DNA of 53,654 nt, counting the filler, from Jimgerdemannia flammicorona (Eukaryota), in the NCBI GenBank assembly GCA_003990765.1. It is 3 parts of 3 records of this genome, joined end to end, with 100 filler letters (N's around TTAATTAATTAA, not from the genome) between each part and the next. Parts side by side here need not be neighbours in the genome. Positions count along the whole stretch, not along the records: positions 1 to 17,824 come from RBNJ01002395.1; 2 more parts are not named here. One strand, given 5' to 3'. The position numbers were made by a program, and so were the translations under genes. Each line of letters starts with the position of its first letter. Position 1 is the stretch's first letter. The notes under the pieces are model-generated. The model had not been told where the DNA came from and did not search any database. It worked only from the letters and a program-made list of their open reading frames with translations. This document shows positions 1-49,923 of the stretch, one piece after another.

Positions 1-256
1 CTCCCCCCACCCCTCTGCCTCAGTCCACCTCTCCCTCCTCCTCCAGCACCACCGCCCACCACAGATGGCCCCAGCATCCCCAAACCATCTCCTCGTTTCC
101 TCCCAACCTGCTGCCAGTCGAAGGCCCAGCTGCCCCCCTGGCCGACCTGCCCACCAGTATGCTCGTTGCTCGCCATGTTGATAGTAGCTTTTCACCAAAA
201 ACTTCGCAGAAAGTGCTGTCCAAATCTTGTGTCACCTGAATGTTACCGGTGAAAAG
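1..256 (-). mobile_element. 5' end of an L1/Tx1-like LINE (ORF1 ATG at 176, runs off the window start)
   Basis: Reverse complement (ttcaccggtaacattcaggtgacacaag...) aligns with the LINE 5' ends at 47900 and 7179. The open frame MASNEHTGGQVGQGGSWAFDWQQVGRKRGDGLGM...GGRGGLRQRGG matches ORF1 near 48046. Confidence 0.85.
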
Positions 257-270
257 GCTGATTTTTATGC

Positions 271-387
271 CCTGAATACCTTGTCAAATGGAAAGGATAT
301 CCAATCCATGATGCAACATGGGAACCCAAGACCAATCTCCAGAATGCCACTGACTTAGTTCAGGAATTTGATTCCTTGAACAACTGA
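271..387 (+). pseudogene. C-terminal half of the integrase chromodomain of Ty3/Gypsy family A (copy A1, 5'-truncated)
   Basis: PEYLVKWKGYPIHDATWEPKTNLQNATDLVQEFDSLNN*, nearly identical to the chromodomain ending at 41670. Confidence 0.9.
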
Positions 388-803
388 AATCTGAATACTC
401 TGATACCTATCAGTACACACTATATATTACCTTTCCGAACATTATAATTATCATGAACCAAATCAAGAACTCAGCAAAACAAGACAAGAATACCAACCCT
501 CTAGAAAAACAGCAAAACTGAAAGCCAGCCTATTCTCCCTATACCACTGGTGGGAAACAAGGCATAGACATTTAAGAAGATTCCTTAGAGGAAATTCTCC
601 AGCAGTGAATGACGTCAGAATCACTTCCAGTGCACGGCATTGAACATACGACCCTTTAATGTGTGAACCCAATGCGTTAGGCAACTGTACTATGAGCATG
701 CCACTTTCTGAAAAAAAATGGACTTTACCAGACTATTGACCTCCTAAATGGTATAACAAGACTAGAATAAAATTAGAAGGCTCTGATGAGGATGTCGAAA
801 GCT

Positions 804-816
804 AAGAAGGGGAGAG
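804..816 (+). promoter_or_regulatory. Polypurine tract of Gypsy copy A1
   Basis: aagaaggggagag sits immediately before the TGTAAG LTR start; same arrangement at 41869-41881. Confidence 0.85.
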
Positions 817-1105
817 TTGTAAGCGCACAACCTCCAAGCCACTGAAATCACACGTCACCCTCTGAACAAGCCACTGAAATCACATGCGACCTCCGAACAA
901 ATCTGGAAATCACCTACTTGATCATGAAGCTGAGTCAAACTGAAGTCACAGCGCACAAAGCTGAGTCAATATGAAGTCACAGAACACAAGATTTACACAA
1001 ATGGAATCTTACCAATCAGGACCAAATGCATATATACCAAGCACCGAGACGCATCGAATCAGAGAACCAAAACAAACAACAACTACAACTTCCAAACACA
1101 CAAAC

Positions 1106-2203
1106 ATGACCACTGAGATCTACAACTGTATCCACGCTGACATTTGGAATGCCATTGTCAACCGAGCCACACCCCCTCTGCCCCTCATGAATATCCATAG
1201 CCTAGCACCCCTCTACTTTGTGGAAGCCCGATGGAATGCCCTGAACATGCTTAACGAGGTCCACCAGATTGGACAAATCTCAAGCTATTACCAGATCGGC
1301 CGCCTCCTAGAAGACATGGTCGAGCACCACTATGACACAGATATTACTCAGATGTCGCAACATCAGAAGCTTATTGCGTGCAAACACAGAGAGCTCTTCT
1401 ATGAGTACAGCACCTTTATTCCCTGCCTCCGAGTTACTACCAGTGAGATGATTGCTACCCTGTCCTATGGCCAAATTGATAACATGATACAAGAACTCAA
1501 CCACAAGTACCTCGAGTACATCCAAACTACTGACAGAACTTTCTCACACCCCAATGATCACATCCTGCAAATGCCCCAAGTTGGATATGCCATAAAGGAC
1601 ATCTACGATATAATCCACTTCGATGAAGATGAAGCAGAAGACAATGACCCCTCTGATGCCGACATGACCTCAAGCCAAGGATCCTTGCCAACCCTGATCA
1701 CGCCACCAACATTGCCAATGAACTTACAACAGTTCATAACTGCATATGAGACTTATTGGGACAATGACCACTGGCACGAATACCAACCCGCATTCACCCC
1801 TGATTACTTCAATTACAATGAAGAGACTGGAGAACACAATCTGTACCTCCAGACAACCCTCGAAATTGAACCAACAACTCCACCACCCAAGTACGAGTGA
1901 TATGAACCACAGCCACCAACTTACTACAACCCCGCGACTCATAGTGCTGTAACCTATAGAAGGTATGCAGACAGCGAATCCGATGAAAGTGAAGACAATA
2001 CACCCATCCTTCGCCCACCAACACCTTATCCAGTATATGAAACAGACAATGCTATTCTGTGGGATGGAGATGAAGTTCTAATGTATTATTACCTCACCGA
2101 ACAAGGAGAAGTAATCCACGAACCACTTTTCCTAGATGACTACTTCATCAGAGATGATGCAATCGATGGTGATGTCATCGAAGACTATCCAGATAGTGCC
2201 TAA
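1106..2203 (+). pseudogene. LTR(U3)-encoded 365-aa acidic protein of unknown function; one internal TGA at 1898-1900
   Basis: ATG in acacaaacATG context. The frame is open to TAA 2203 except one TGA that is CAA in copy A2 (both derivable from CGA). Identical 1098-nt length in copy A2. Confidence 0.8.
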
Positions 2204-2266
2204 ATCTATAAATAGTCTAGCAGTCATAGTATAGATAGATTAGCCTTATACGACGTGACTGTGAAC

Positions 2267-2523
2267 TGACTCAGCAGTCAGACGATCTCTTGACATGTCA
2301 GATCACTATTGTACTACATGACTGCATTCCGACTCAGCAAAGCACTTAGTGCTACATCCATATCTAGCATAGTCCAGATAGTCCCTCACTAGTATAAATA
2401 CCCCCTCCCCCAGACCTCAGAATCTCAGACTTGAACAATCCGAACACAACTCCTGAGCACTTCCCCACAATATCCCTTCACACAACTACTCCTAGTATAG
2501 CAATATCATGAATAGCGAATAAA
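2267..2523 (+). promoter_or_regulatory. LTR promoter/polyadenylation region (TGACTCAGC motifs, TATA box, AATAAA)
   Basis: tgactcagc at 2267, cgactcagc at 2330, tataaata at 2393-2400, aataaa at 2518-2523; all conserved in copy A2. Confidence 0.65.
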
Positions 2524-2881
2524 CCTATTTAATAACCCACAAACCACTCTTAAGTAAATTCGCTCCCTGTTAGGTCCTACTCCTAACCCCATCACGAAAT
2601 TTCCTAATTGGGTATTGTCTGCAGCGATACACTAATTCAACTAAGCTAGTCTTAGTTTCTTGAACTTCCTGAAATACGGAAAATCCTGAACATCCAGAAC
2701 TAGTCCAAAAAAGGACTTTGGTTGAGACGTCAACCCAATCTTGAAATCAATAAGCATAGAGGATGTACTCCATACGAAATTGATCTTGACCATAAGAAAA
2801 CAGTCTTCCAGAATATCCAGAACTTCCAGAAAACCCTTCCAGAACTACATAACAGTTACCTTAAAAAGTAACCCTCTTACA

Positions 2882-5800
2882 CTTTCAGCCAAGCCAATAG
2901 AGACTCTAAGGACAAAATATAGAGCAGGGGGGAAAGAGGATCACTCTGAGGCACACTTCTTTCCAGGATAAACTCTAGATTACTCCACTCATTCATCAGC
3001 ACTGCTGCTCAGCAGCCTTGTACCAGGCCCATCAATCTTTGATCATTTACTGTACTGAACTCTACCTTCTGCAATACTACCTTCAAATAGTTCCACTGCA
3101 ACCTATCATAAGCCTTTCCTTGATCCAAAAAAACCATCTGCCTATCTACTTGCTAGCTTCTGCAGCCCTCCAAAATATTCTACACCTAGGCAGTACTGTC
3201 TCTAATCTACCTCCCCTTTATGAAGCCTCTCTGATCCTTGCCCACTAATTGGCCAACCCACTGCTATATTTTCCCAGCCAAAATTTTAGACACCAACTTT
3301 CTGTCCACATTCAGTAACATGATAGATCACCAGTTCCACCATATGCACTAATCTCTCTTCTCCTTATACAGCAGAGAGATCAACTCTAAGGAACTATTGC
3401 CAATCTAGCAGCCTTTTCTCAAAATGAAGTTTGTCATTTCTACTAGCCATCTACCAAACTTAACTCCAGAATTCCCAAGACAGTCCATCTTTCCCAGGTA
3501 ACAAATCAGCCTATACTCTCCTCAGTACCTTCAATACCTCTTCAAGGATCACTGTACCCATCACTGCCCCATCTATCTTAGGTACTGCTACCACTGGCCA
3601 ACTGCCAATCAAATTGTCATTGTTCTCCTATAAGACCCCTCTCCTCCCAAGCCCCCCTTCATCTTATCAGAGAGCTTGTTATTGTCTAGACACCTCTCTA
3701 AGTATATTCATAATGCCAGTAACCTCAATACTATCCTCTTGCAGTATCAAAGCCCAGCTATGTCATACTCTCCTAGCCTTCAGTATATCTAATAAATATT
3801 TGGTGGGCCACTCTTCTTCTTCCAACTATCTTTCCTGTAACCTTACCAACAGTCTATCTACCACTCTATCTTCAGCTATCTTTAGATCTAACTTCAACTT
3901 AGCTATCTTCATGGCCAACTAGGAGTACCTCTTTCCTGACAAGTTCTCTCTTCCAACAACCTCAACTACCATCACAGCTCTTGCTTGACTCTTCTACTTT
4001 ATCCTTCTGCTCTTTTCCAGCTACTTCTCCAACATTACACCAATAGACACCCACTAAATATTTAAATTTACCCTACTACCACTCTATTAGCTATTCACTA
4101 TTCTTCTACTATATCACTTCTTATCTTACAGTTGCCACAAATTATTCCTGCTCTACCTGTCTTCTGAGTAAAGCCACATTGAGTCACCAGTGACCTCTAC
4201 CCCTGCTAACTGCCTAAAACCTTCTACATATCTTTACTTTCTTGTGATCTGACCAAAGGCACCACCATACCTCTGCTAAGTCCAACATATTGCCCCAGTA
4301 TTCAGCTATCAAAATCCAATCAATTCTCATTCTAACCAGATCCTCACCCATAGGGTACCACCTAATGAAGGGTTCTGGCTTCTCTCTTTGATGTTGCTGG
4401 ACACCATCAACCAATCCCATATCTCTCTCAATCTGAAGCCAATATAAGAGCTCTGCTGAGACAGTCACTCCAACCCCACCATCAGACCTATCTAATGTCC
4501 TATTATATACTATATTAAAGTCTTTCCCCAGAATGTCCAGCCCAACCTCCTCTTGGTCTCTCTAAGCTAGCCAGCTCTCCACCTATTGGTTTTGCTCTCT
4601 GCCAACTACTGGAAGATAAACAGAGCCCATAACTAGTTCATCCCCAGCTCTTCCTTTCAATCTACTCCATATTAATTGATCACTATAAACTTCCACCTCT
4701 ACTAGCTCACCTCTCTCCATACCCACCAAAATGTCCACCTGCTCATTCCAACCTGCACTATCATGCTATTCCTTACTCTACTCCTCATAATTCTGCCTAC
4801 CATAGATATGAAAATTCTGAAGAAATATCACATCATGTCTCCTGATCTTTAGCTAATAAATAGATGCCATCACTTTACTCTATTTTATAGATTATTGACA
4901 TTTAGCAATAATATATATAGACTATTCATCATCATCAGTAAAAATGCTTAGAGTTCCACAGAGATTATCACTACCTTCTCAGTCTATCTATAGATTATTT
5001 CCTTTTACTCCTCACAGATAGCTCTCCAGATACAGACTCTATTTATACTACTGCAGAATATATCCACCCACTCAGATGCCACTTTTCTGATATCAGCCAT
5101 TTGGTCCTCATCTATATATCTCATATCTTTCATCATCTAGAAGTACTGTTACCATTGCTATTACCAACTTCAATCCCTATATAGTAATATTGAGAAATAT
5201 CTCCCAAGCCTCCTGAGACCTATTAAACATATCTACCTCCTTAATATCCTCCTCTATAAGTTCCTCAAGTACTGCCTGATACCAGCTGTCTGCTATCATT
5301 ACCAGAGGCCCAGGGGTGGCAGGCCTAGGAGTTCTACTCAACTCTTAAAGCATCTCTCTATCTGCTGAAATGTCAGAGGCCACATCTATCAGGTCATTCT
5401 CCTCAGTGACCTTCTCCAGCACACTATCTTGCCTGCCTCAGGATACTCTTAATGAATATTTGCTGCCTCTACTATATTGATGTCCTCCAACTGAGTTTCT
5501 GGTACTACTTCAGTGATATCCTCAAAACCTCCTCCTCCTTATTAGCCCACTTCCCTATCACTGGTATATGAGTTGAATCCTCTACACCATCTAGCTGTGA
5601 AAAGGATATCTCAGCTATCTCTACATCTTCCATCTGACTCTTGGCTATCTCTGCCCTCACTATCTTCTCTAATTTTGAATCTTGAAGGACTGTCTGCAGA
5701 TATTCTCAGTTCACTTTTTACCATCTCTTCCTCCTCCCATCTGTCAGAATCCAGATCCAGTCCTTAGTGAACTCCTCTCATCTCCTCTTTTACAATTCCT

Positions 5801-6886
5801 TTACTGCCTCTCTCTCCTCCAGAGTAAGTAACAATTCCTCCTCCTCTTACTCAGATCCCTTCCTCCTCTATACCTTATACTCTTGACCACTAATATAAAT
5901 CACTTCTGGCCAGTCTCTCCCTAGCCCCATAGCCTCCTTGCCCTCCAGTCATACCATAATCTCACAGTTGCTATTCCTTAGCTTAGTCCTCTCCCAGAAC
6001 ATAAATCTGAAATCCACTATCTCTCCAAAGCCCCCCAGTGCTTCTGCCATAATCCCCTTAGTCTCCTGTCTCTCCAGAGTTAGCAACTCTTCTACCACCA
6101 GACATATAGTATGTAGATCCCATCTCAGACATCTTGCCATTCCAATCTTGACATTCTTAATCATCAATCCTTTCTCCAGAGCCTTCACCATCTCTTCTTC
6201 CTCCACAAAGTCAATCTCTACTATCTCTACTGATAGAATAAACTTCAGAGACTCTGTACCAGCAACCTCCTCACCTACTAGCTGCAGAATCTCTCTGGCA
6301 GACATACTCAGCCCCAAGAAGTTTACTGAGATTACCCACATCAATACTAATTTGTGAAAGAAAGAGTGTACTATCAGTTTACTAGAGCCCACTACTATTG
6401 TCAACTTCTTCTTACTTTCTGAGACTCCAGCAGTTACTCCTCCAGCTCCTACAAGCCCACCAGTAGGTCTACCATCAGCCACTAGCTCAGCCTCAGGAAT
6501 ACTAGTCCCAGCCATCACACCACCAGATCCCTGCCCCCTGCCAGGCACCTGACCAGTCACCTGACCTATCACCTGACTCCTCTCTCTGTCAATACTATGT
6601 CCCCCCTGCTCTACCCTCATGGACCTAGCAGTAGCTCTCCTGCCCCATACCACAGTATACTAGCTTTCAATATCAGCAGGTCTCTCCTGATCACCTGTCT
6701 CACTAACAGTAGCACCAGCCCCCATCACCACCATAAAACTCTTGGAGAGGCCCAGACCAGGCCTCCTCCTTTCTAAGTACTCAGAGCTTAATGAATCTTA
6801 GGTTGTCATTAGACAAAAATTTGACAGAATTTGATAAAACTTATTATAAACTATAGCTAGACTCCTGCTGCACCTAGTACACCGGT
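2882..6886 (-). mobile_element. Decayed L1/Tx1-like LINE (ORF1, APE endonuclease, RT N-half), interrupted by the Gypsy A1 LTR
   Basis: ORF1 segment 5949-6653 is homologous to 48046-49359 (AREILQLV...LKFIL...MARCLRWD). ORF2 relics WSDH, GKDGLSWEFW, FLDQGKAYDRL and PQSDPLSPLLY end at the LTR terminus. Confidence 0.85.
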
Positions 6887-6899
6887 GTAGGCAAAGTAA

Positions 6900-7178
6900 A
6901 AACTTGAAAACATATTGCTTTTTATAAAAAGATACTTGTGTGGCTTAGCTTGGTTAGTTTGATTTGAGCAAAAGAAGTCTTGTCTGATCTATGTTACTCA
7001 ATATATAAATATATATTATCAGAAATAATAAACAATACTCCTTCTTCTCTCTACTCTATATTCTCAACTTATTTACAATAAAGGTTATAAGTTTCACTTA
7101 GCAGCTAATAAGAAATATTTTTTTAAGACTCTATACTATACTATGCTATAATGTCATAACTGATAAATTAAGAAGTCA
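6900..7178 (+). mobile_element. Probable Ty1/Copia 5' LTR end, primer-binding site and leader relic (boundaries approximate)
   Basis: aaggttataagttt at 7081-7094 resembles a decayed Copia-type PBS (aggttatgagccc). Once the LINE is removed via its TSD, this joins the Copia gag at 13202. Confidence 0.45.
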
Positions 7179-10100
7179 TTTTTCTCCAGTAACATTCAGA
7201 TTATCCAACCTTCTGACAATACTTACAATACAGTTTTTGAAGAAAAGATACTAGTATCATAGTGACTGATGAGTATCCTGAGATGTGTACTGGGCAGAGT
7301 GGTCTTAGTATATTTGACTAACAGTATGTAGGGAGGGGCCCCAGCTTGGGGGGAAGCATGCAGGGCCTGCTGGCAGGAGGATGTGGTAGGGGAGGGGATA
7401 GTGCTGGAGGTCAGGGGACAGAGAGAGTGAGCTTCATAGAGAAGGTGAAGGGGGATCAGCAGAGAGCTGGGCTGGAGAGTTGGCTGAGGAGAGATAAGGT
7501 AATAGTAAAGACTATAGAGCAGAGGCTTCAAGGGAGAGCCCCTCTGGGGGGCCAGAGTAGTGGGACTGGTGATGTAGTGGCTGAGAAGGTGACTACTGAT
7601 AGAAGCATGATAGGCAATCTGAAAAAAAATCTAAATGGAACTGCTGATGATAGACTAAGCTGTGGGAAGGGCATGAGGCCTAGTGACCTGGCTGATGATA
7701 TAATGGGACTGGTAGTGGCACCATTACTCAAGAAGTCAATCTCAGAATTTATAGTCACTCTGTACTTCAAAGGCTTAGTGGTGATGGCAAAAATGATCCT
7801 GGGGCTGATTGTGAAGCAGGTGGAAGGCACAGCATCTGTTAAGTTCCTGAAGGGCCTGGAGGTGGGCTTTGAGAAGGCAGGGCTACTGAAGGAGGTGCTG
7901 AAGACTGGGTTGATGGTTGGAGAGGTGTGTGTCTCAATAGCATAGTGCTTGAGATGAGATCCCAGAGTGGTGTAGCTCCTGGTGAAGGGAGTGCCTATGG
8001 TGACTGCTGTGGAGATGAGGAGGAGAGTTGAGAAGGTCATGGCAGAGTATGGAGAGGTAGTTGATATAGGGTTTAGGGTCTGGGAAGGAACCACCTTCCA
8101 GACAGAAGATGTTGATGTTCAGATTCAACTAGCAGAGAGGGAGACTACTGATAAGGTGTATGATTGACCTTTGGTGATGATGTGGGGAACCTTTGTATGC
8201 AAGGTGATGAGGGTAAAGGGGAGTGAGGAGGAGGAGAAGGACCTGTTAGAGGTACTGGAGGAGCTGAGTGGTGCAGTAGAGTGGAGGGTGAAGGCTTGGA
8301 AGATGTATATGAAGTCAATATACTTAGAGATTATTGATGAGAGGTGAGTCTATATTGACAAGGGGCTGTGAGAGAGGACCTAAGATTACAGGAGGCAGAG
8401 GGAGTTGCTGGCAAGTCTGGAGGTGAAGAAGACAAGGGCTACTAATGGCAGCAAGGATGCTGAGAGAGCTTTGGCAAGTGTCTGGGCTGGGAGGAAGAGG
8501 GAGAATATAGAGGTGGATCTGGAGGAGGCCAGGAAGGCACTGAGTGAGGACCTATATGAGAATGGTATATTCAAAGTCTGGGAGCAGTCTTCTACTCCTA
8601 CCTCTCTTATCAGGTAGGGACTGGCTACAAGGGGCTAAGTGGCAGAGGATGTGCCCATGCATAGTGCTCAGTGGATATACTTTGGGGTTCCTGAGGTAGT
8701 AAAAGGAGGACAAGTAGTGGCAGTTGGTGAGGAAGAACTGGTGAATATCCTGGAGGAGAGGTGAAATGAGACTGCAAGTATAGGAGAGAATATCTTAATA
8801 CTGAGTAGAGAATGGCCTGCAACCCCTGGGGAGAAGGAAGTGGGGAATATAAGGTGGATGTGCCAGATGATAAATAACCTTGTAGCTGAGAAACTGAGAG
8901 AAGTGGACCTGAGAGTGATGAGTGATGAGTATTAGACAAGGATCTTGTATGGTGATAGAGTGGTAGAGACATTAAGGGCAGAGGTACTAGCAGTCTTCCT
9001 GGAGGAGGAAGGGTATGAGGTAGACAAAGATAGAGAGGCTGAGCTAGCAGTTATTGCTAGTGAGCAAGCCACCTACTGCTGGGAAAAGCCTCATAGTTTA
9101 CAGCTCTGGTAGGAGGCCTGCCTGGAGTATCATAACGATTTTGAGGAAAAGGAAAATAGGGAAATGGCTGAGCTACTGGAGGGATTAGAGACTAAGAGAG
9201 CTGAAGAGAAGGAGGTGTCCACTAAATACAACCTAGACTTGGCAAGAAAGGTAAGAGATATAGAGCAGTAGAGGATGCATTTTCAATTTCACAATATTCC
9301 TTATGAATAGTATAACTAACATTTTTTCTCTCAATATGAATGGGTTATGGAGTTCAGTTTGGTGTCAGAATATTTTTACTTTGCTGAAAAGACTGGAGGC
9401 TGATCTCTTTCTTTTGCAGGATATCAGGTGTGAGGATGATTTGGATAGACTGGAGTAGACTAAAGAATAGAAAGAAGAGGCTATATGGAAAGACAAGATG
9501 GAGATTTTGATCTGGAGGAGTAGAGAAGAGTTACAAGAGGTGAGGAGCTGGGGAGACAGGCTGGTTTTGGGAGAGTGGATTTGAGTAGGTTGGGAGCCAG
9601 TTATAGTGGGGTCTTACTATTGTCCTGCTGTATGGGAGAGGCAGGTGGACTGGGTGAAGGGTCTTCAGGAGAGTAGGGCCCTCAAAGAGACTGGAGTGGT
9701 TATGCTTGGCAGGGACTTCAATATGTATGGTCTGGGATATATTGGTGGATAGAACTGATTGAGAGCAGGGGGCTAAGAGTAGGAGTAGAGGTCTGGAGAT
9801 ATAGGAGAAAGTGGAGAGACTGAGTGTGCTGGTGGATGCTGGCAGGGGATTTTGGGGTGATAGGAGGATATATACACACTGGGCCAGGGGTCTGGAGATG
9901 AGGATTGACTGAGTTTTGACCACAGACTGCTGGGGATTAGATAGCTGAAAATCACTGGAGGTTGAATGGTATTTGTAATCTGATCATTGGAGGTTGTTAA
10001 GATAGGGACATTTTGGGGGGAGTGGGGATGGGCCTGGACATTGGTGCCTGAATTTCTCTTTGTTAGATGATAAGGAGCTGTGGGATAAGTGGGCTGTAAA

Positions 10101-13100
10101 CATTCAGCAGAGGGTAGAGAGATGGGTACAGGAGGGGACCCCTATGGGTGTCAGGTAGATGTGGCTGAAGAAGGCTGCTAGGGTTTACTGGAGAGAGGCT
10201 GGCAAGATGACTGGCAGAGAGGAGGTAATGGGGGGCATGGGCTTCTACTAGGCTGGCTTGGCTTCTGGAGGATGAGGCTGAACTATTGGCCCTAGAGGGG
10301 AGGACTGGAGATTGTTGTGAGTATAGAAGGAGATTGAGGAGCTATAACTGATAGTAAGAGAGGAGGAGGAGGCATGGGTGCAGAGTCTGATAGCATAGTT
10401 ACATTGGCAGGGACTGGAGGAAGAGAAGAGGCTCTCTAAGTTTCTCATGAGGGTCCTTTGGGCAAAGAGAGTTCAGCAGAGGTAGGAGGGGGTATTGGAT
10501 GCTGATGGTCATCTGGTATATAGTATAAAAGATATTCTCAGATTGTTAAAAGAGAAGTAGAGTGGTCTGTGGAGTGAGGAGGAGGGAGGGGGGTATTGGA
10601 TGCTGATGGTCATCTGGTATATAGTATAAAAGATATTCTCAGATTGTTAAAAGAGAAGTAGAGTGGTCTGTGGAGTGAGGAGGAGGGAGGGGCTGATGAT
10701 GCTACCATTGACCATACTTTGGAGGATTGGCATCCACCACAGGTAGGAGGACTGGACAGTCTGGTGTTGCTGATGCAGGAGGAGAAGATTCACCAGGTTC
10801 TTGCTATAACTTTGCTGGATATGGCACCAGGAGAGGATGGCTTGCCCTGGGACTTTTGGAAGAAGATGGTGGGAATCCCCAGTATGCTAGAAGAATTAAT
10901 AGTAATGTGTGACTTGGTGCTATAGTCAGAGAGATGAGTGGGTGAGCAGAATCTGGGGCTGGTGGTACTGCTCTATAAGGATAAAGGCAGGAGAGAGGAC
11001 TGGAGGAACTAATAGCCAATTATGCTACTAGATATAGACAGAAAGCTGGTTACTAAGTTAGTGGTGGCAAAGTTATAGAAGGTGGCCCAGCAGGTATTGG
11101 GGGAGGAGTAGCAGGGCTTTGTGGGTGGCTGGCTCATTAGGGATGGCATGGCTTGAGTACATGGTATTATTGAGGGGGATGAGCCTGTGGACTGGATGGG
11201 TGCCTGGGTTTTCTGGATTAAGAGAAGATATATGACTGTGTCTAGTGGGTCTGGTTGGCAAAGGTACTGGATAGGATTGGTATCTCTCAGCAGTTCTGAG
11301 TGGTAATAATCAGTCTACTGGAAGAGAGTCAAGTGGTGCTTATATGCAATGGGGGCTTTTTCTCTAGCTAGAGGGGTCCCCCAAGGGGACCTGCTGTCCT
11401 CTATTTTGTATATACTCTTATTGGAGCCATTGATAGATAGGATTTGGTAGAAGATAGTAGGGCTCTCAGTATTGAGCATTAGATGAAAGATTGGAGCTTT
11501 TGCAGATGATATAGTGGTTGGTCTAAGATCAATCACTGATGTGGAAGAACTCAAGGTATCAGTGGAGTAGTATGAGGTACATTCTGGGACTAAACTCAAC
11601 TGGCACAAATGTGAGACAATAGTGTTAGATAATGGTCTAGTGAGAGGAGATGTCATTGGAACAATTGTCCCTGCTAGGGAGGTGATGTGATATCTAGATA
11701 TTTATCTTATAGTTTATGGATCCATCTTATCTAAGGCTTGGTAGAAGCAGTGAGTTGCAATCTGGGGGGAGGTCCTATAGAGTTGGGGTGGCTGCCAGTT
11801 GTTTCTAGCTGGGCATATTTCTATTTCGAATGTCTACTGGCTACTGAAGCTATGGTATTTGGCTTATCATCTGGACTTCCTAGCCTGGGTGGTGAAGTGA
11901 TTGTTGAAACAGACCAAGAGTTGGATCTGGACTAGGAAGAGGAGCCAGATTAGCTGGGAAATCTTGTCTCTGCCAGTCACTAAAGGAGGTCTGGGACTGG
12001 TTGACTTTCTGAAGAGACTGTACTATCTGAGAGCATGGTAACTGAGGAGGGCAGTGGAGCTGAGAGATAGTAGCTGGGTTTCCCTGATGAAGAGGGTCTG
12101 GGAGATGAGGTCCTCACTAAGAGGCTCTACAGATAATCTACTGTCTTTGGTTAGGCTTCAGAATATTGGTCACATGTAATATAAGGAATTCTGGTGGGGA
12201 GTTGTAGATAGAGTACACCATATTGGAATTTGCTAGTAGGGAGATGAAGGGGAAATACCTTGGGGCCCTGTGATGTTGAGATGGAACTGTATACTGTTGG
12301 GGAGTATCTTGTTACTTAATTTTGATATTAGTGATGGGGTAGAGTATCAGAGAGAGTTAGAATAGGATTTGTGGCCTGGTAGATGGTAGCAGGTGGATAT
12401 CAGGGAGGAGTGGGACTGGAATAGAGTTTGGGCCTAGAGTGCTGAGATTAGATAATAGATACCATCAAAGTACTGGGTGGTCTAGTGATACATGTTGTGG
12501 AGGAATATCATGCTCAACTTTTGCTCAGGCCATCTAGTTGAGGGGGGAAGTTTTAACTATGAGGAGTGCTATAATGTAGAGCAGGAAGGAGGTTTTATAC
12601 AGACGCCTGAATATTGACTGAGAGTGTGTGAGATACTTGGTAACTTCTGGTTGATGGTTGGGTATTGATTGAATGTAGTGCATAAGAGGTGATATGAGAG
12701 GCAGATGGGAGGATTTGCAGAATAGATTGGTAGAGGGGATTGGGTTGGAGTAGCTTACTTTAGGTTGGGTTATAGCTGTATAGGTAGAGTTGGTAGATTA
12801 CTAGTTGTTTATTTTTGAGAATGAGAGGAGACTAGGATTGAGGACATGGTTACTGAGATGAGAAGGACTGATGGAGGACATCTTGATGGGCTAGTGGCTT
12901 GGTTGAAGTCTGCAGGGTGGTTGACAGTATAGTTTGGTTCAGAAAATCTATAGATAGAGTGGGGGAAGAGTTGAGTTAGTGGGTAAAAGGATATCTTTCA
13001 AGTGTGAAGAGATGAGAGGAGCCCCTCTAGGGAGATTGGGTAGTGTGAGGTGATACTGTAACTATATCTATAGACTGGTAATAAATGGCAAAGTTCAAGT

Positions 13101-13147
13101 GATTATAAAAATAAAATAAAATAAAATAAAATAAAATAAAATAAAAT
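7179..13147 (+). mobile_element. Full-length decayed L1/Tx1-like LINE with target-site duplication
   Basis: ORF1 relic from about 7260; ORF2 relics FSLNMNGL, AGDFN, APGEDGLPWDFW, GVPQGDLLS, AFADD, YL. AATAAA and (TAAAA)n tail. TSD ataaat[t/c]aagaagtca at 7163-7178 and 13146-13161. Confidence 0.92.
10486..10692 (+). repeat. Exact 101-bp tandem duplication inside the LINE
   Basis: tattggatgctgatggtcatc...gaggaggagggagggg begins at both 10493 and 10594. Confidence 0.9.
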
Positions 13148-13150
13148 AAA
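13106..13150 (+). repeat. (TAAAA)n LINE tail
   Basis: Direct pentamer repeat at the 3' end of the LINE. Confidence 0.9.
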
Positions 13151-13879
13151 TCAAGAAGTCAGTATAAGTACACAGCTATAGTAGGCATAGGTACTCTCAA
13201 AATGAGTATAATAGTTATAGTTTCTGCAACTAGTATAAATATAGTCAAAAGATTAATCTCAATCTTTAATAGTAAGAATTATACTATTTGGATTTTTTAT
13301 ATAAGCAATCTCTTAAAAAAATATGACTTAGCAGAATATATAAAACTGCAAGTACAGATTCAAGATTATAATATTATAAATAATTACTGAGTATTATAAG
13401 AGATTATGTTTATATTATCAAACTAATAAACAAAGCTTATAATGTAACTATAATAGCCTACAATATATGAGAGACTCTATATAATCATTATATATAAGTA
13501 TCTTTGTTAAATTAATTCTATCTAGAATCTCAGTTATTCAATTTATAAATAAAATCCAAGAAGAGTATCTTTATATACTGATCATATCAATAATCTGATG
13601 AATCAGGTAAATTTTTTAAGTATATCAGTAGAGTATATTAGTAATGAAGACTCTTATATAAGGTCATTCTAAGATATATAACATTGTAATGATAGTCATA
13701 TAGGAGAGCAAGAAACTCACAAATTATATCTATTATAATAATATCTTCAAAATAAGTTACATCAGAATTCAGAAGACTGTCTTGATTTTGCAAGTAACTA
13801 GTTAAAAATTATATGTAACTCAACTATGATTCATCTTAATTATAAGATAATCTACATCTAAACTCATAATGACTTACAA

Positions 13880-15575: not shown

Positions 15576-15958
15576 AATATACAATATAAACAAGCTACTG
15601 ATCCATTCTGAATGACCAATCACATGACCAATAGTTTGAAATATACAAACTCTAATATGATGTAACTTCATTATAATACAAACTTTAGCAAATAAATCAA
15701 ATAATAGTTAAAGTAAACATTGAGCCAGAATATTATTAGTAAAGATATAAGTAGCATATAAATAACTAGTGGTATATTGAGCTATATATATCAGCAAAAT
15801 AATCTATACAAATCACACACCATATTTTAGAGACTCAATTGGGAAAGTTTTCTAAAGACTTAACAATTTGGCTCAAGAACTTAGCAGTCATCTACAGTGG
15901 AGAATTTAGGAGAAACTAGTCAACAGTAGTCTACTTTAAGAAGAGAGGTACATATATA

Positions 15959-17405: not shown

Positions 17406-17410
17406 CAGGG

Positions 17411-17824: not shown

Positions 17825-17924
17825 NNNNNNNNNNNNNNNNNNNNNNNNNNNNNNNNNNNNNNNNNNNNTTAATTAATTAANNNNNNNNNNNNNNNNNNNN
17901 NNNNNNNNNNNNNNNNNNNNNNNN
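17825..17924. other. Artificial assembly spacer (N44-TTAATTAATTAA-N44)
   Basis: 100-nt N run containing an all-frame stop linker. Confidence 0.98.
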
Positions 17925-35845: not shown

Positions 35846-38800
35846 CTTGCACTACACCCAGCAAGTCAAGATGAAGAAGGTCTTATTGAAGCCTTCTTTA
35901 CTCTTCTCAACAAGAGTTTTGTCAGCTCCACAAATCCGAGCAACCTAGGACAACCAGCAGCAGTCTTTCTAGCCTTAGTTCCTCATGAAGCCCAAGCCTC
36001 TGTAGCTAAGTGGCTCAACTCTACCAACTTTCACCATATCAGGACCAAGACCACATTATACTACCGATTCCAGAACAGCAAGACCTACCATATTCTTAAA
36101 GAAGAAGCAAGAGAAACTCTTCATCAACTACCTGACCCTGAACCTGAAGCAGGCCCTACTACAGCCCTATCTGAATCTGAAACCAATACCGAACCTGAAC
36201 TTGACTTTGAATTAAGTCCATCTGAAATCAGATATATAACTGATTCTGTCTACTTTGATACCGAGCAAATCCAATTACACGGGGACCAAACCAAAGAAGA
36301 GGAGGAGTATCTCAGCGAATTCGATCCCAGATATACCACTGAAGGAGAAGTACCTCCATCAGGACAGAATACACCTACACAGCAACAAACAGTTATCTAT
36401 CAAGCCCTCACTCCAGACCCACAACTACTACTCCAGCAACTTACACAGACCCAAAGAACCCCATTACACTCTGCACCAGTACCTCAAGTAGTACCAGTAA
36501 CACCACTACCAGCAGTCCAACCGCCTCTAGTAAATAATATAGTGAACCAACAGATTCTAGACCTCACAGCCCAGGTAGCCATAATGGCAGCAACTATTAC
36601 TACCTTAGCTGAACAGACCCAACCTACCAAAAATCTGAGCCTACCTACCTTCAATGGTACTGCACAAGAAGTCCAAAGCTTCATTAGTATAGTTGACACC
36701 AACTTCGAAGCCAATCAATGGACTAATGAGTGAGTTGCTGACCATGTTCTGACAAACAATCAAGACCACACTCTGGAATAACTCTTTGCTACTACTACAG
36801 CCTATGTCTGCCGAGTTGTTACATTCTTCTGAGGACCTGCTGAAGAATAATGGCAAACCCTTCCTGAAAAACCCCTCACATGGGATACCCAACCTGCAGA
36901 AGTTGCTCAGAATGTAGCAAACAATGCCCCAGGATATGGAGTCCATCCTGTAGCCCCTGGACTCAAACAACTCATGATTGCTCAATACTGCAGCAAAACC
37001 ATGATTGCTGAATCTCAAGTAAAACTCCACAACCTCAAATTTGATGTACATGACAAAGAAGAATTCAAAACCTTCTGTACAAAACTCGAGTCACTCCTGA
37101 ACACTGTTGGCCTAGGATACATTGCCAATGATGAAGTACAAAATGGTACAAGAGCAGACTACTTATTCAATGCCCTGCCTGAATGGCTTACTAGAAAAAT
37201 CTGAGAACAATGCCGCCCAGTTGGTTGTGACCACCAACAATAGTGCCTAGCAAGAATCAAGACTATGGTCAAGCAAATCCTAACAGCTGGACCAATTCTG
37301 CCCTGAAGACAATTCAACAACAAGGAAAAGACTTGGACTAAGAAAGAAGAACCCAAGCATGAAGTATCCTAAGCTCCCTCCACATCCACCTCTTGGACAC
37401 CTAGAAATCATGAACCCACCCAGCCAAGTACCTTCAAGAAACTCACTGAAGGTGAAAGAAATGAACTTTGAAAAAGTGGAGCATACTTCTATTGCTGAAA
37501 GACAGGACACATGGTCAGTGCCTGCCCTAACCGAAAACCCCAAACAGCAACACAAGCAACTGTTACCACTCTGCACTACCTCAACAATCTGACCACCAGA
37601 ACACTGGACTTTGTCAAGTTAAGACAAACTACTAAGGCCCCAACCAAAGGAAGTCAGAAAGCAGCTGGATATGACCTGTATGTAGTTGAAGAAGCTACAG
37701 TTTCCAACCGAGAAGTCAAACAAGTCTACACAGGAATCAGTATCCAAATCCCTGAAGGACATATTGGAAGAATATGCTGTTGCAGCAGCCTAGCATTGAA
37801 AGGACTCTCAGTAGAAGGAGGAGTCATTGACAAGAATTACACAGGTGAAATTATTGTCCTCATCTGAAACCACAGTTGGACACCCTTCAAGATCCCTATT
37901 AGTTTCTGCATTGCCCAGATTCTATTCGAAAAAATCAAGTCAACCCTGATAGTCAAGGAAGTCCCTGAACTACTGCCTACCATCTGAGGATCCAAAGGAT
38001 TTGGCTTATCAAACAAGGCCCCAGCCCAACCTACCATGAGCAAAGAAGAACAATTCTACAAGAAGATCAAAGATAGATATGTACCAAGTGGCCAATGCCC
38101 TCATGACATTGGAATGTACTCTTCCTGAATGATTGATGATTGCTTCTCTTGTATCAATGAACTGGCATAAAGAAGAACCAATAGAAGGAAAGCTCCTATA
38201 ACTGAAATCACCACTATTGGATCAGACAAACTGCTCACACTTAAGGCTTTTGTCAACCGAGTATCTGTCAAGATTATGATAGATAGTGATGCCTCAGGCA
38301 ACTTTATTAGTGAAGAAACAGCTGACAGACTTAAGATCTTTACCTCTCCAGTACAGCAAACTCAAGCAGTTGCTACAGCTAATGGAACCTCACATATTAT
38401 TAGCAAAGAAGTCTGCAATCTACCTTTCCAAATTGGAGACTACCGAGTACATGTTACCCTCCAAATTGTATCACTTCCTGACAATGAAATCATCCTTGGA
38501 ACCCCATGGTTAAAACAAGAGAACCCTATGATCGATTGGGTAAACCATTCTCTGACCATCAAGAAAGGATGCCACAACTTCAAACTGTAAGGAGAAAAGG
38601 ACCCACTTAATTCTAGTGACCCTGGACCAAAGATCACTCACATCAACAAGCTACAACTCAAGAAATTGGTCAAGAAATGCCCTCTCTTCACCATCTCCAT
38701 CTGTCCATTCAAAGGAGAACCTGAGAACTCTGAAGAAGATTTTTCCAAAGTTGACAGCCATGTCAGACCACTACTCCAGAAATTTCGAGACATATTCCCA

Positions 38801-41670
38801 AAGAAACTCCCGAAAGGCCTACCTCCTAATTGAGTAGTATACCATGCTATTAAGACTATTCCAGATGCCAAACCAGCCTTCAAGTCAATCTACCATATGT
38901 CTCTGAGAGAAATCGATGCACTCAAGAAAGAAATTAATGAACTCCTAGAACAAGGATTCATCAGACCCAGCATATCACCCTATGGTGCACTGGTCCTCTT
39001 TGTTGTCAAAAAAAGAGAAGACCTGTGAATGTGCATTGATTACCATGACCTCAATGAACAGACCATCAAGAACTGTTGCCTACTACCAAGGATTGATGAA
39101 ATATTTGATAGGCTCACCAATCCACAATTCATAAGCTCCTTTGACCTATGAAATGGTTAATGGCAAATTGTCATGAAAGAAGAAGACATCTACAAGACAG
39201 CTTTCCGAACTCGCTATGGACACTTTGAGTTTCTGGTTATGTTCTTTGGCTTAACTAATGCTCCAGCAATCTTCCAGACACTGATGAATACTATTCTGCA
39301 TCCATACCTGGACAAATTCATTGTTGTCTATATTGATGACATCCTAGTCTTCAGCAAAACCCTGGAGGAACATCTTGAACACCTTGAACTAGTACTACTG
39401 AAACTCCAAGAAAACCAACTCTTTGCAAAACTCAGCAAGTGCGAATTTCTTCTGAAAGAAATCCAATTCCTTGGACATATTGTCATGCCAAATGGAATTA
39501 AGGTGGACCCCAGCAAAATCTCCACAATCAAGGATTGGCCCAAACCCAAGAAGCTGAAAGACCTCCAGTCATTCCTGGGATTAGCAAACTATTACAGATG
39601 ATTTGTTGCCAACTTTGCCAAAATTGCTACCACCCTCACCCAAATGACCAAGTACAGCAAGAAACAAGAACAACTCTGGATCATAAAACAAGAGAAAGAC
39701 TTCAACAATCTTGTAAATTAGGGACCTGAACAAGATACAGCCTTTTAAGCATTAAAAGATACTCTGATAACCACTCCAGTACTTCAAGCAGCAAATCCTG
39801 CTCTATTATATAAAGTTACCACTGATGCCTCTGACCTAGCCCTTGGAGCAGTACTCATGCAAGAAGGACACCCTGTGGCCTATCATTCCTGCAAGTTCAA
39901 TGATGCTGAAATTAACTATGTAACCCACAAGAAGGAAATGCTAGCCATCGTAGACACTCTGATCAAATGGCAACCATATCTAGAAGGAGCACACTTCACT
40001 GTATTGACTGACCACAAGTCATTAGTCAACATCAAGACACAGACTACCCTTTCTCGAAAGCAAGCCAGATGGATGAAAGTCCTCACCAACTTCGACTATG
40101 AAATCCAGTATCACCCTGGTAAGGAAAATATTGTTGCCGATGCAATCTCCAGACCACCAATTGAAGAGGTTATCCAAACTCTCACCTTGGTTACAAACTC
40201 CATCATGGAACAAATTATCACAGCATGTGCTGATGATAAGGAAGCTCAAGTACTGCAAGAAATCCTGAATAGTGACAATGCTGACAAGCATACACAGTAT
40301 CATTAATACCAACTGAAGGACAATGCTATCTACTACAAAGACAGACTGTATGTCCCAAACAACCAAGACCTCCAAAGGACTATCCTATTTGAATGTCATG
40401 ATGCCCCTACAGCTGGACATTTAGGATTTGATAAATGTTACAAAGTTATCTCCCAAAACTTCTATTGGCCCTGCATGGCAGATCAGCTCAAAACCTACAT
40501 CACTTCCTGTAATGCCTGCCAATGAAACAAGTCCTCAACACTAGCAAAACCCAGCTTACTTCACCCTATCCCAGTACCATCTGTGAATTGGGAACAAATC
40601 TCTATGGACTTCATTGTACAACTACCCCAAACCAAGAATGGAAAAGATGCAATTGTTGTCTTTGTAGACTATCTCAGCAAACAAGCCCACTTTGTACCTA
40701 CTACCACTACTGCAACAGCATCAGACATGTCACACTCTTGTTTGACAACATCTTCTGCTACTATGGTCTTCCCAAGATCATCATTAGTGACCAAGACCCG
40801 AAATTCACCAGCCATTTTTGGAAAGCCCTCCATACACACCTTGGAATAAAACTTGCACTATCCACAGCCTTTCACCCAGAAACTGATGGCCAAACTGAAA
40901 GAATGAACTGAACTCTGGAATAAATACTAAGGAACTATGTTTCCTACAGACAAGATGACTGACATGCACACCTCACTACAGTTGAGTTTGCCTATAACAA
41001 TAGCAAGCAAGCCTCTCTCAGAATGACTCCATTCTTCACCAACACTGGACAAAACCCAAACACCCCTTTGACACTTATCTGAACAACTGAAGAACCCTCC
41101 ATAGTCGAAGCTATTGAAGAATTCTTACTTTGAATGCACAATCTAAGCCAGATTGCTATCAAGAATTTATCACGAGCTCAAGAACAACAGTCACAGTATG
41201 TTAACCAATATCACTGAGAAGAAACCTTTGATATTAGAGAAAAAGTTCTACTGGACATCAGAGGATACTGAGTTGACAACCTCAAGTATAGACCATCTAC
41301 AAAGCTGAACAGCAAGTTCATTAGACCATTTGAAGTCATTGCACAAGTCTCTCCAACCTCCTACAAATTGGCACTACCAGACACTATTAAGATTCACCCA
41401 GTCTTTAATGTTCAATATCTTAAGCAATACAATGAGAATGATGATGAGCTATTTCCAAACCAGACCACCAAACCACCTGCACCTGTCATTATTAATGATC
41501 AAGAAGAGTATGAAGTTGAACAAATCCTCAACAAACATGACAACAAGAGCCACCCTGAGTACCTTGTCAAATGGAAAGGTTACTCGATCTATGATATAAC
41601 CTGGGAACCCAAGACCAATCTCCAGAATGCTACTGACCTAGTTCAGGAATATGATTCCTTGAACAACTAG
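35846..41670 (+). pseudogene. Single-frame Gag-Pol polyprotein with premature stops and a frameshift near 40730
   Basis: LPTFNG (CA); YFYC*KTGHMVSAC (NC); MIDSDASGNF (PR); [13 protein letters not shown] and [10 protein letters not shown] (RT); TDAS and TDHKSL (RNaseH); ISMDFI and HPETDGQTE (IN); EYEVEQIL...YLVKWKGY (chromodomain). ORF pieces from 36542 to 40583 share one frame. Confidence 0.93.
37600..38015 (+). pseudogene. dUTPase domain of Gypsy family A
   Basis: All five motifs: AAGYDL, (R>C)SSLA, GGVIDKNYTGEI, (R>C)IAQ, (R>*)GSKGFGLS. Confidence 0.93.
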
Positions 41671-41882
41671 AACCAAATACTCTGTACCTATCCATACATA
41701 CTATATATTATCCTCCCAAACATTATAATTATTGCAAACCAAACCAAGAACTCAGCAAAACAAGACAAGAATACTGACCCTCTGGAAAAATGGCAAAACC
41801 AAAAGCAAGCCTATTCTCCCTGTACCACTGAACAAAATTAGAAGGCCCCAATGAGGACATCGAAAGCTAAGAAGGAGAGAGT

Positions 41883-43944
41883 TGTAAGCACACAACCTCC
41901 AAGCCACCGAAATTACACATCACCCTCTGAACAAGCCACTGAAATTACACACGACCTCTGAACAAATCTGGAAATCACCTGCTTGATCATGAAGCTGAGT
42001 CAAACTGAAGTCACAGTACACAAAGCTGAGTCAATACGAAGTCACAGAACACAAGATTTACACAAACGGAATCTTACCAATCAGGATCAAATATATATAT
42101 ACTGAGCACTGAGATGCATCGAATCAGAGAACCAAAACAAACAACAACTATAACTTCCAAACACACAAACATGACCACCGAGATCTATACCCATATCTGT
42201 GCTGATATTTGGAATGCCATTATCAACTGAGCTATACCCTCTCTGCCCCTCATGAATATCTATAGCCTAGCACCCCTCTACTTTGTGGAAGCCCGATGGA
42301 ATGCTCTGAACATGCTTAGCGAGGCCCACCAAATTGGACAAATCTCAAGCTACTACCAGATCAGCTGCCTCCTGGAAGATATGATCAAATACTACCACAA
42401 TACAGACATTATCCAGATGTCTCAACACCAGAAGCTCATCGCCCACAAACATCAAGAACTCTTCAATGAGTATAGCACTGTTATTCCCCACCTCCGAGTT
42501 ACCACAGCCGAAATGGTTGCTACCCTATCCTACAGCCAAATCAATGACATGATACAAGAACTCAACCACAAGTACCTCGAGTATGTCAAAACTACAGACA
42601 GAACCTTCCCACACCCCAATGATCACATCCTGCAAATGCCCCAAGTTGAATACACCATGAAGGATATCTATGATATAATCCACTTCAATGAAGACAAAGC
42701 AGAAGACAATGATCCCTCTGATGCTGACATGACCTCTAGCCAAGGATCTCTGCCAACCCTGATCATACTGCCAACCTTGCCGATAAACTTACAATAATTC
42801 ATAACAGCATATGAGACTTATTGGGACAATGACCACTGGTACAAATATCAATCCACCTTCACCCCCGATTACTTCAACTACAATGAAGAGACTGGAGAAC
42901 ACAATCTGTACCTCCAGACAACCCTCGAGATTGAACCAACCACTCCACCACCTGAGTATGAGCAACATGAACCACAGCCACCAACTTACTACAACCCTGT
43001 GACTCATAGTGCTGTAACCTACAGAAGATATGCAGACAGTGAATCCAATGAAAGTGAAGATGATGCACCCCTCCTTCACCCACCAATACCTTACCTAGTA
43101 TATGAGACTGATGATGCCATCTTGTGGGATGGAGATGAAGTTTCAATATATTATTACCTCAGTGAACAAGGAGAAGTAATCTGTGAACTACTCTTCCTAG
43201 ATGACTACTTTATCAGAGATAATGCAATTGATGGTGATGTTATCGAGAACTACCCAGATAGTACCTAAACCTATAAATAGCCTAGCAGTCATAGTATAGT
43301 TAGATTAGCCTTGTATGACATGACTGTGAACTGACTCAGCAGTCAGACAATCTCTTGACATATCAGATCACACTTGTACTACATGACTGTATTCTGACTC
43401 AGCAAAGCACTTAGTGCTATATCCATATTCAGTATAGTCCAGATAGCCTCTCACTAGTATAAATACCCCCTTCCCCAGACCTCAGAATCTCAGACTCGAA
43501 CACAGAAGAACATTCCTGAACACTTCCCTACAAATATCCCTTTACACAACTACTCCTAGTATAGCAATATCATGAATAGCAAATAAACCTATTTAATAAC
43601 CCACAAACCACTCTTAAGTAAATCCACTCTCTGTTAGGTCTCACTCCTAACCCCATCATGAAATTTCCTAATTGGGTATTGTCTGCAGCAATACGCTGAT
43701 TCAACTAAGCTGGTCTTAGTTTCTTGAACTTCCTGAAATATGGAAAATCCTGAACATCTAGAACTAGTCCGAAAAAGGACTTTGGTTGAGACATCAATCT
43801 GATCTTGAAATCAATAAGCATAGAGGATGTACTCCATATGAAATTGATCTTGACCATAAGAAAACAGTCTTCCAGAATATCCAGAACTTCCAGAAAACCC
43901 TTCCAGACTACGTAATGGTTATCCTAAAAAGCAACCCTCTTACA
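41883..43944 (+). repeat. 3' LTR (2062 bp) of copy A2
   Basis: TGTAAG...CTTACA after a PPT; colinear with 818-2881. Confidence 0.92.
42171..43268 (+). pseudogene. LTR-encoded 365-aa acidic protein, copy A2 (stops at 42228 and 42795)
   Basis: Same length and frame as 1106-2203; its stops fall at codons that are sense (CGA, CAG) in copy A1. Confidence 0.8.
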
Positions 43945-49892: not shown

Positions 49893-49923
49893 AGTGGGGT
49901 CTCTACTGCAACATTTCTTCAAT

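Follow-up and report, generated by a model that had tools for sequence, protein, structure and literature searches.

Gene content of the locus

We analysed a stretch of 53,654 nucleotides, filler included, from the fungus Jimgerdemannia flammicorona (assembly GCA_003990765.1; hereafter the window), in which what is very probably a long terminal repeat (LTR) of about 2.06 kb occurs twice, as copies A and B, each enclosing an open reading frame (ORF) of 365 codons. Both copies lie downstream of remnants of Ty3/Gypsy elements. The LTR would comprise the usual unique 3' (U3), repeat (R) and unique 5' (U5) regions, and its main features, in window coordinates, are the following.

818..2881, plus strand: LTR copy A, 2,064 bp, from TGTAAG (818-823) to CTTACA (2876-2881)
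41883..43944, plus strand: LTR copy B, 2,062 bp, with CTTACA at 43939-43944
1106..2203, plus strand: ORF copy A, 365 codons, ATG at 1106, TAA at 2201-2203, in-frame TGA at 1898-1900
42171..43268, plus strand: ORF copy B, 365 codons, in-frame TGA at 42228-42230 and TAA at 42795-42797
804..816, plus strand: polypurine tract (PPT) of copy A, AAGAAGGGGAGAG, 13 purines, followed by one T and then TG
41869..41881, plus strand: PPT of copy B, AAGAAGGAGAGAG, followed by T and then TG
927..989, plus strand: tandem repeat of 2 x 31 bp (Tandem Repeats Finder), one TGAGTCA per unit (931 and 962), a candidate enhancer upstream of the ORF
2393..2400, plus strand: TATAAATA, presumed promoter of the genomic RNA by pattern only, 190 bp past the ORF stop, with its equivalent in copy B at 43458
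2518..2523, plus strand: AATAAA, presumed poly(A) signal (end of R) by pattern only, with its equivalent in copy B at 43582

The boundaries and anatomy of copy A (818-2881), including an ORF that ends 190 bp before the TATA box at 2393, are as the initial annotation had described them; the end of copy B is corrected here to the CTTACA closing at 43944, for a length of 2,062 bp. When the LTR region was searched against the window with BLAST, one other copy was recovered (41830-43947, 88.8% identity over 2,121 columns). Identity between the two LTRs rises to 98.6% with transitions masked, and their homology terminates at the CA of CTTACA in both. An Rfam search of 250-3000 returned no RNA family.

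Copies A and B sit on different contigs. Runs of N around a 12-mer, TTAATTAATTAA, which has stops in all frames, occur at about 17840-17924 and 35746-35845; at least three contigs are therefore joined in the window, and sequences facing each other across a linker are not necessarily adjacent in the genome. Since pol/chromodomain homology precedes both LTR copies, A and B represent the 3' ends of elements.

The two ORF copies have the same length (1,098 nt) and align without a gap, with 151 mismatches and 86.2% identity. Read in the other two frames, this stretch is interrupted by 17 and 31 stops in copy A and by 17 and 37 in copy B. Both window copies of the gene are dead, with one and two nonsense codons, respectively, that arose from transition/CpG decay: codon 265 is TGA in A and CAA in B, codon 20 is TGA in B and CGA in A, and codon 209 is TAA in B and CAG in A. 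An earlier claim that the copies stop at different codons, each through C>T decay, holds for the positions; a single C>T step explains only one of the three stops (CGA>TGA), and the other two require two transitions, or a CpG intermediate, from the sense codon of the other copy.

We place the start at the ATG at 1106, where a protein fragment from outside the window (P0006) also begins (MTTEIYN). The in-frame ATGs at 971 and 1001 were rejected as starts, both being ACG in copy B. The extension that they would add (971-1105) has 10 A/B differences, six of them on second codon positions, a pattern unlike that of coding sequence, which again argues for 1106.

Evidence for selection on the frame

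Differences between the two ORF copies fall unevenly on codon positions 1, 2 and 3 (50, 23 and 78), in line with the gapless second copy and many third-position differences noted at the outset. The ratio of nonsynonymous to synonymous substitution rates (dN/dS) was 0.18 (NG86), 0.24 (LWL85), 0.42 (YN00) and 0.35 (maximum likelihood) in the ORF frame, and 0.69 and 1.54 in the shifted frames. When the observed differences were re-placed at random with base and CpG context matched, 92.7 ± 4.9 amino-acid differences were expected and 65 observed, with none of 5,000 replicates as low; third-position changes were in excess (78 observed vs 54 ± 5 expected). Trinucleotide-matched re-placement in both directions gave expectations of 89.0 ± 4.5 and 91.3 ± 4.7 against the same 65 (0 of 3,000 replicates as low in each).

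Codon usage points the same way. Relative synonymous codon usage of the ORF correlates with that of the element's pol at r = 0.78 (0.23 and 0.66 for the shifted frames), and its G content at codon positions 1, 2 and 3 (0.28, 0.10 and 0.14) is close to that of pol (0.27, 0.11 and 0.13). Between A and B there are no indels across the 1,098-nt ORF; the spacer before the PPT differs by a 215-bp indel, and gap columns occur in the part of the LTR after the ORF. Among the 12 of 25 indel entries listed for contigs of public sequencing runs placed on copy B, one lies in the ORF, an inserted C at 42504 carried by a minority of the depth of run X1.

Taken together, these comparisons give good support to the conclusion that purifying selection maintained the ORF during the diversification of the family. 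The frame had been proposed as protein coding, a status that now rests on dN/dS values of 0.18-0.42, the deficit of amino-acid changes under permutation and the open homologues described below; neither a dN/dS near 1 nor frequent frameshifts were seen, and the A/B alignment has no gap.

Decay has nevertheless marked both copies. Transitions make up 133 of the 151 ORF differences, and the CpG observed/expected ratio is 0.53 and 0.25 in the two LTRs vs 0.91 in a gene-like stretch. At sites of Cys or His in copy A, P0006 carries Arg; CpG decay of copy A should leave just such changes, and they fit the CpG depletion of the LTRs.

Probable placement of the ORF within the LTR

During reverse transcription, plus-strand DNA synthesis begins at the PPT, and both ends of the element receive a copy of the sequence from the PPT to the 3' end. 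The PPT upstream of the ORF, the TG adjoining it and the match of TGTAAG to the terminal CTTACA, which pair at six of six positions as an inverted repeat, would thus place the whole ORF in U3. In a motif scan of 270-2890, the run at 804-816 was the sole purine run of at least nine with TG behind it, and 818 was the sole TGTAAG. TATAAATA and AATAAA follow the ORF in the expected order, about 120 nt apart, and the U3/R border is presumed to lie about 25-30 bp beyond TATAAATA. Between the ORF stop and the LTR end (2204-2881) we found neither a purine tract with TG behind it nor a TGTAAG-like word, an absence that speaks against the ORF being an internal third gene ahead of a shorter LTR. We consider it highly probable that the ORF lies within the LTR, a view based on the PPT, the inverted ends and the logic of replication rather than on an observed 5' LTR.

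The 5' part of the LTR is also conserved as a unit. Its first ~290 bp (818-1105) are 92.7% identical between A and B, among the best conserved parts of the LTR; both TGAGTCA sites are kept in copy B (41996 and 42027), and a TATA-like box near 1030, ~70 nt before the ATG, is conserved in both copies.

Contigs of four public runs were placed on copy B. One X3 contig switches to other sequence exactly at 41882/41883, the LTR start. X3 and X4 include variants that lack 31-57 bp inside 41898-41961, in the 5' part of U3, which may reflect copy-number variation of a ~32-bp U3 repeat seen by eye at 836-900 of copy A. Summed contig depth, a poor and ambiguous measure of copy number, climbs at the LTR start from 300 to 963 in X1, from 31 to 121 in X3 and from 6 to 35 in X4.

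Searches for further copies were negative. A transition-masked (purine/pyrimidine) BLAST of the window recovered no further LTR copy and no 5' LTR, and a protein-alignment search for additional loci confirmed none of 202 metagenome, 149 viral and 107 prokaryote contig matches. A 22-mer of U5 matched three loci in metagenome contigs; these were one unrelated sequence sharing 27 bases by chance and were discarded.

The carrier element

Upstream of the two LTR copies lie the following segments.

35846..41670, plus strand: internal region of copy B, with an orphan frame, gag region, dUTPase, protease, reverse transcriptase (RT), RNase H, integrase, SH3 and chromodomain
270..549, plus strand: 3' end of pol (chromodomain) of the truncated copy A, 86.1% identical to 41553-41830 of copy B and reading ...EYLVKWKG...
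550..764, plus strand: 215-bp spacer segment, in copy A and absent from copy B

Pfam matches in copy B cover dUTPase (3.1e-19), RVP_2 (2.1e-11), RVT_1 (3.3e-24), RT_RNaseH (5.1e-32), Integrase_H2C2 (1.4e-19), SH3_Tf2-1 (2e-16) and Chromo (PF00385, 1.4e-15). The dUTPase domain lies at 37499-37864 (plus strand) between the gag region and the protease, protease, RT, RNase H and integrase follow in that order along 38171-40522, and SH3_Tf2-1 and the chromodomain close the integrase C-terminus at 41272-41667. Because the domains upstream of copy B run in this order from dUTPase to chromodomain, we assign the backbone, from its sequence, to a dUTPase-bearing Ty3/Gypsy chromovirus (Metaviridae). According to the parts of PMC2864245 available to us, dUTPase occurs at varying pol positions in some fungal chromoviruses.

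The internal region of copy B is full of stops and frame changes. It opens at 35846, directly after an N-run linker, leaving the 5' LTR, the primer-binding site (PBS) and the gag start unassembled. The element of copy A is truncated, its homology to copy B stopping at about 268. The first bases of its spacer match the loose end at 41830 in contigs of run X1, and other copies therefore carry the spacer too.

An open frame of 295 codons (35846-36730, plus strand), rich in E, Q, P and T, ends just before the gag-like part. It has its first Met only in the last third, no Pfam match and no similarity to the LTR protein, and it could represent either a further extra ORF or a long extension of Gag at the N-terminus.

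The encoded protein and its relatives

The LTR ORF specifies a protein of 365 residues, about 42.8 kDa, with an isoelectric point of about 4.2. Its N-terminal 170 residues are predicted to be helical. Residues 171-365 are rich in D+E (22.6%), Y+F+W (14.4%) and P (11.3%), and the last 35 residues carry a net charge of about -11. This bears out the D/E/Y/P-rich C-terminal half described earlier; the half is conserved in blocks down to a 64% identical relative (e.g. FTPDYFNYNE.TGEHNLYLQTT and YYYL.E.G..I.EPLF.D.YFIRDD), so it is not a mere low-complexity tail. No hydrophobic segment was found in the protein (maximum 19-residue Kyte-Doolittle mean 0.86).

Database searches assigned the protein to no family. 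No Pfam family reached its cut-off (RAMP 17.6-18.5 bits vs 27; WW_TCERG1 14.4 vs 70), the lowest E in a profile search of the PDB was 0.55, hence no match, and ESM Atlas look-alikes scored 0.85 at most, an F-box lead reaching 0.84. Judged by these searches, the LTR protein is an orphan.

Two relatives were found outside the window, both singleton clusters. P0006 (128 aa, 91% identical) is an open frame with the same first residues, and P0004 (247 aa, 64% identical) is open to the common C-terminus ...YPDS with two 2-residue gaps only. Grouped by length, the homologue search yielded one of 544 candidates of near length, one of 42 shorter and none of 1,435 longer ones. A profile search of 1.84 billion representatives gave three matches; we discarded the third, P0007 (E 8.8e-7), because this tandem-repeat protein also matches 24 unrelated Pfam families.

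PPxY motifs occur at residues 260 and 270 in both window copies and are missing from P0004. We also observed two conserved aromatic motifs, W-x10-YFNYNEETGEHNLY and W-x7-YYYLTEQGEVIHEP, at 1736-1855 and 2060-2125 (residues 211-250 and 319-340), which form low-confidence beta hairpins in both AlphaFold models and have the PPxY motifs between them. We take these motifs to resemble the WW-domain pattern, for which Pfam support is sub-threshold only (WW_TCERG1, E 0.023).

The 20 public runs listed as holding part of the stretch come from 13 studies, and those that hold the LTR are mostly soil metagenomes. In X16, a small run ('organism B'), a 9,601-base contig with a depth of 368.7 matches about 250 ORF bases (42724-43079) at about 84% identity with a 103-base skip, and is then unlike the window; it may represent a related family with a diverged version of the gene.

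Alternative explanations

As a whole, the observations are best explained by a selected accessory gene borne in the U3 of a dUTPase-bearing fungal chromovirus, to which we assign a probability of about 0.72. Several results weigh against this explanation or limit it. No 5' LTR, PBS or target-site duplication is present in the window, the long copy B beginning at a contig linker, and depth climbs another 2-3 fold just past the ORF stop in X1, X3 and X4, as would also be explained by a shorter LTR or by sister families that share only the 3' half of the LTR. The selection estimate draws on two DNA copies plus two protein fragments, these being the only relatives among about 15 billion predicted proteins. 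Of all parts of the LTR, the ORF has diverged most (86.2% vs 90.9-92.8% in the other four segments), which we read as stronger cis-acting constraint on the non-coding LTR than on synonymous sites; recombination between subfamilies would have the same effect. Neither AlphaFold model is informative (mean predicted local distance difference test scores of 31.7 and 32.4). Finally, Pfam detected no DNA-binding domain and the sole basic cluster is an RR at residue 285, which weakens the case for a transactivator that binds DNA directly.

An improbable alternative keeps the ORF in the LTR and moves it from U3 to R. RNA would then run from near 1060, downstream of the TATA-like box at ~1030, to past the AATAAA at 2518, the genomic RNA would have the ORF as its first cistron at the 5' end and again at the 3' end, and TATAAATA at 2393 would be a second, internal promoter. 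The conserved box ~70 nt before the ATG in both copies, the two TGAGTCA repeats upstream and the 92.7% identity of 818-1105 all fit such an arrangement, which would moreover need no splicing. It would, however, require an R of about 1.5 kb, far longer than any known to us, a poly(A) signal in the 5' LTR that is ignored across 1.4 kb, and a gag turned into a downstream cistron, and it leaves aside the canonical unit of TATAAATA, about 120 nt and AATAAA downstream. Less probable again is an internal position for the ORF, as a third gene (ORF3) that separates pol from the 3' LTR in the manner of many plant and animal Ty3/Gypsy elements; the true LTR would then be the ~680 bp after it. Extra internal ORFs are a common arrangement, according to the accessible text of PMC6431247 and PMC5408684, no 5' LTR is seen, and the 2-3 fold higher depth after the ORF in X1, X3 and X4 fits as well; yet 2204-2881 offers no TG-flanked purine tract or TGTAAG-like end for such an LTR, its TATA box would leave U3 with less than 190 bp, the break in one X3 contig falls exactly on 41882/3, and the PPT and TGTAAG at 818 pair six of six with CTTACA, for which we estimate chance odds of roughly 1 in 500.

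Least probable of all, and very remote in our estimate, is that the frame is no working gene of the element, being either the relic of a captured host sequence or a functionless frame kept open by composition. The stops in both window copies would suit this reading, as would the failure of our searches to find a family, fold or distant homologue and the fact that no transcript is known. Against it stand the highly significant deficit of amino-acid changes under context-matched nulls and the 17-37 stops in the other two frames; the excess of third-position changes, the in-frame-only indels of the 64% relative and the pol-like codon usage are likewise unexpected for a neutral relic.

Proposed expression and function

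For the U3-borne gene, we propose an element whose ~2.06-kb LTR holds the complete 365-codon frame between the PPT and the TATA box. From the mechanism of replication, each LTR, solo LTRs included, would carry the gene, and the genomic RNA would hold it once, 3' of pol, so that it would need a message of its own. Among the possible routes, we tentatively favour a subgenomic message from an LTR-internal promoter, the TATA-like box near 1030 behind the TGAGTCA repeats, ending at the LTR's AATAAA, because the first 290 bp are conserved and include these repeats and the box and because a poly(A) signal lies downstream; every LTR would then be a small gene. A spliced subgenomic RNA is a possible alternative route, behind the LTR-internal promoter in our ranking, and a long R, under which the genomic RNA would open with the ORF, comes third. 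None of the 20 runs is recorded as RNA. Contigs of X16, a run only guessed to be RNA, cover 42095-43944 with almost no gag-pol, and we draw no conclusion on expression from them.

The initial annotation had suggested an anti-silencing factor or a transactivator. The acidic-aromatic composition agrees with the latter, residues 171-365 having the makeup of an acidic/bulky-hydrophobic activation region (by composition only), and the part that is weakened is direct DNA binding, given that no DNA-binding domain or nuclear localisation signal was found and that the RR is the sole basic cluster. An acidic, aromatic-rich and conserved C-terminal half without DNA-binding features points most to a protein that acts in trans through host proteins, as an acidic activator or adaptor brought by a host factor to the element's promoter. 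At best, then, it would be an activator recruited via another protein, and the activator role itself is a guess from composition that we regard as doubtful.

Taken further, every LTR, solo ones included, could be a self-contained gene cassette with AP-1/Gcn4-like TGAGTCA repeats, a TATA-like box, the ORF and its own poly(A) signal, producing a trans-acting acidic factor that feeds back on the family. Many expressed copies of the factor would be seeded in the genome and would outlive the loss of gag-pol, and feedback could consist in activating the downstream LTR promoter via a host DNA-binding partner or in blunting silencing by chromatin or methylation. We put this forward as a speculative and rather unlikely extension.

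Other features of the window

Several blocks (3001-13000, 27001-31000 and 48001-53000) show very strong GC skew, from -0.37 to -0.49 and then from +0.33 to +0.57. They form one diverged repeat family: 7669-12619 and 48390-53153 are 64-66% identical, and 27670-28844 matches 53187-51982 on the opposite strand. Long ORFs in these blocks resemble Gly- or Pro-rich nonsense.

AT-rich blocks (13001-16000, 26001-36000 and 44001-47000; GC 0.22-0.40) contain what is left of the integrase and RT of other Gypsy elements. The remnants at 44843-45350, 26378-26779 and 31659-31985 become visible only with transitions masked (81-85% purine/pyrimidine identity), and CpG observed/expected is 0.03 in 44000-47000, which suggests older copies erased by C>T change through decay of the repeat-induced point mutation (RIP) kind or through methylation.

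Direct repeats of ~740 bp with 80% identity lie at 21267-22007 and 25184-25875, and amid them are kelch-repeat exons at 23039-23653 and 25405-25917 (both minus strand). One kelch-repeat exon of the window has look-alikes in Ascomycota and Mucoromycota clusters (scores 0.90-0.92). The repeats may have arisen by duplication of a gene segment, or they may be the two LTRs of a different element. A 280-codon open frame at 16642-17484 (minus strand) includes a motif, HSFRIGSATLL, that by eye recalls tyrosine recombinases; it has no Pfam match at E 0.001 and could be a Crypton- or DIRS-like remnant.

Relation to known systems and implications

Retrotransposon LTRs are generally treated as non-coding promoter/terminator modules and are masked by annotation pipelines. 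Genes borne in or overlapping U3 are known from complex retroviruses, namely sag of mouse mammary tumour virus (MMTV), lentiviral nef and foamy-virus tas/bet. MMTV sag is the closest parallel in layout, a gene for a protein of ~300 codons in the U3 of an unusually long LTR, which puts it in both LTRs and, in the genomic RNA, 3' of pol/env. The two proteins share no sequence similarity, and Sag is a membrane glycoprotein, whereas the LTR protein has no hydrophobic segment; the present element is a Ty3/Gypsy chromovirus that lacks env and inhabits a fungus. Neither Pfam (no family at cut-off) nor the PDB search (best E 0.55) revealed a relation to Sag or Nef.

Lentiviral nef and foamy-virus tas/bet are lineage-specific regulatory 3' genes expressed from subgenomic messages, and foamy-virus Tas, which has an acidic activation region, activates its own LTR. 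These genes overlap U3 only in part and begin in the internal region, whereas here the whole ORF lies behind the PPT; we found no homology of the LTR protein to any of them.

Among retrotransposons, the ORF1 of Ogre, the env-like ORF of Athila/Tat, the ORF3 of bdelloid elements and the 'add. ORF' of fungal Gypsy elements are likewise lineage-specific additions to gag-pol. As far as the available text of PMC6431247 and PMC2864245 goes, the extra ORFs of LTR retrotransposons are found in the internal region; the fungal Gypsy 'add. ORF' appears in Fig. 3 of PMC2864245 and may bear on priority. The same source, in the part seen, lists dUTPase-bearing chromoviruses in PosPlaTy3 (Postia placenta), elements of Phanerochaete chrysosporium and Tmt1 (Tuber melanosporum), which share with the present element a dUTPase together with protease, RT, RNase H, integrase and chromodomain, the dUTPase here preceding the protease; that part mentions no LTR-borne gene for them. 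Cassandra elements, which are terminal-repeat retrotransposons in miniature, carry a 5S-rRNA-like unit in each LTR (PMC10886601, in the text available) and so also duplicate a separate gene-like unit with every LTR, but the unit is a small RNA gene and not a protein gene.

The initial annotation knew of no such arrangement in fungal Ty3/Gypsy elements, and we found no description of it in the full-text literature, in a search poor in subscription journals. The accessible portions of PMC3248453, PMC5408684, PMC10787394 and PMC12581995 describe no protein-coding LTR of such an element.

The original observation is confirmed, and the placement of the ORF in the LTR is strongly inferred; the sequence points to a U3-borne accessory gene of the MMTV sag kind, now in a fungal Ty3/Gypsy element. 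If the LTR does carry a selected protein gene, each insertion would deliver two copies of it and each solo LTR would leave one behind. A selected LTR gene would further mean that accessory genes in the style of retroviruses arose independently in a fungal Ty3/Gypsy lineage, and that an orphan protein family lies hidden in the repeat-masked sequence of a fungus that is present in many soil metagenomes. Should the cassette reading also apply, the family would possess an accessory gene with positive feedback, for which complex retroviruses are so far the only known precedent.

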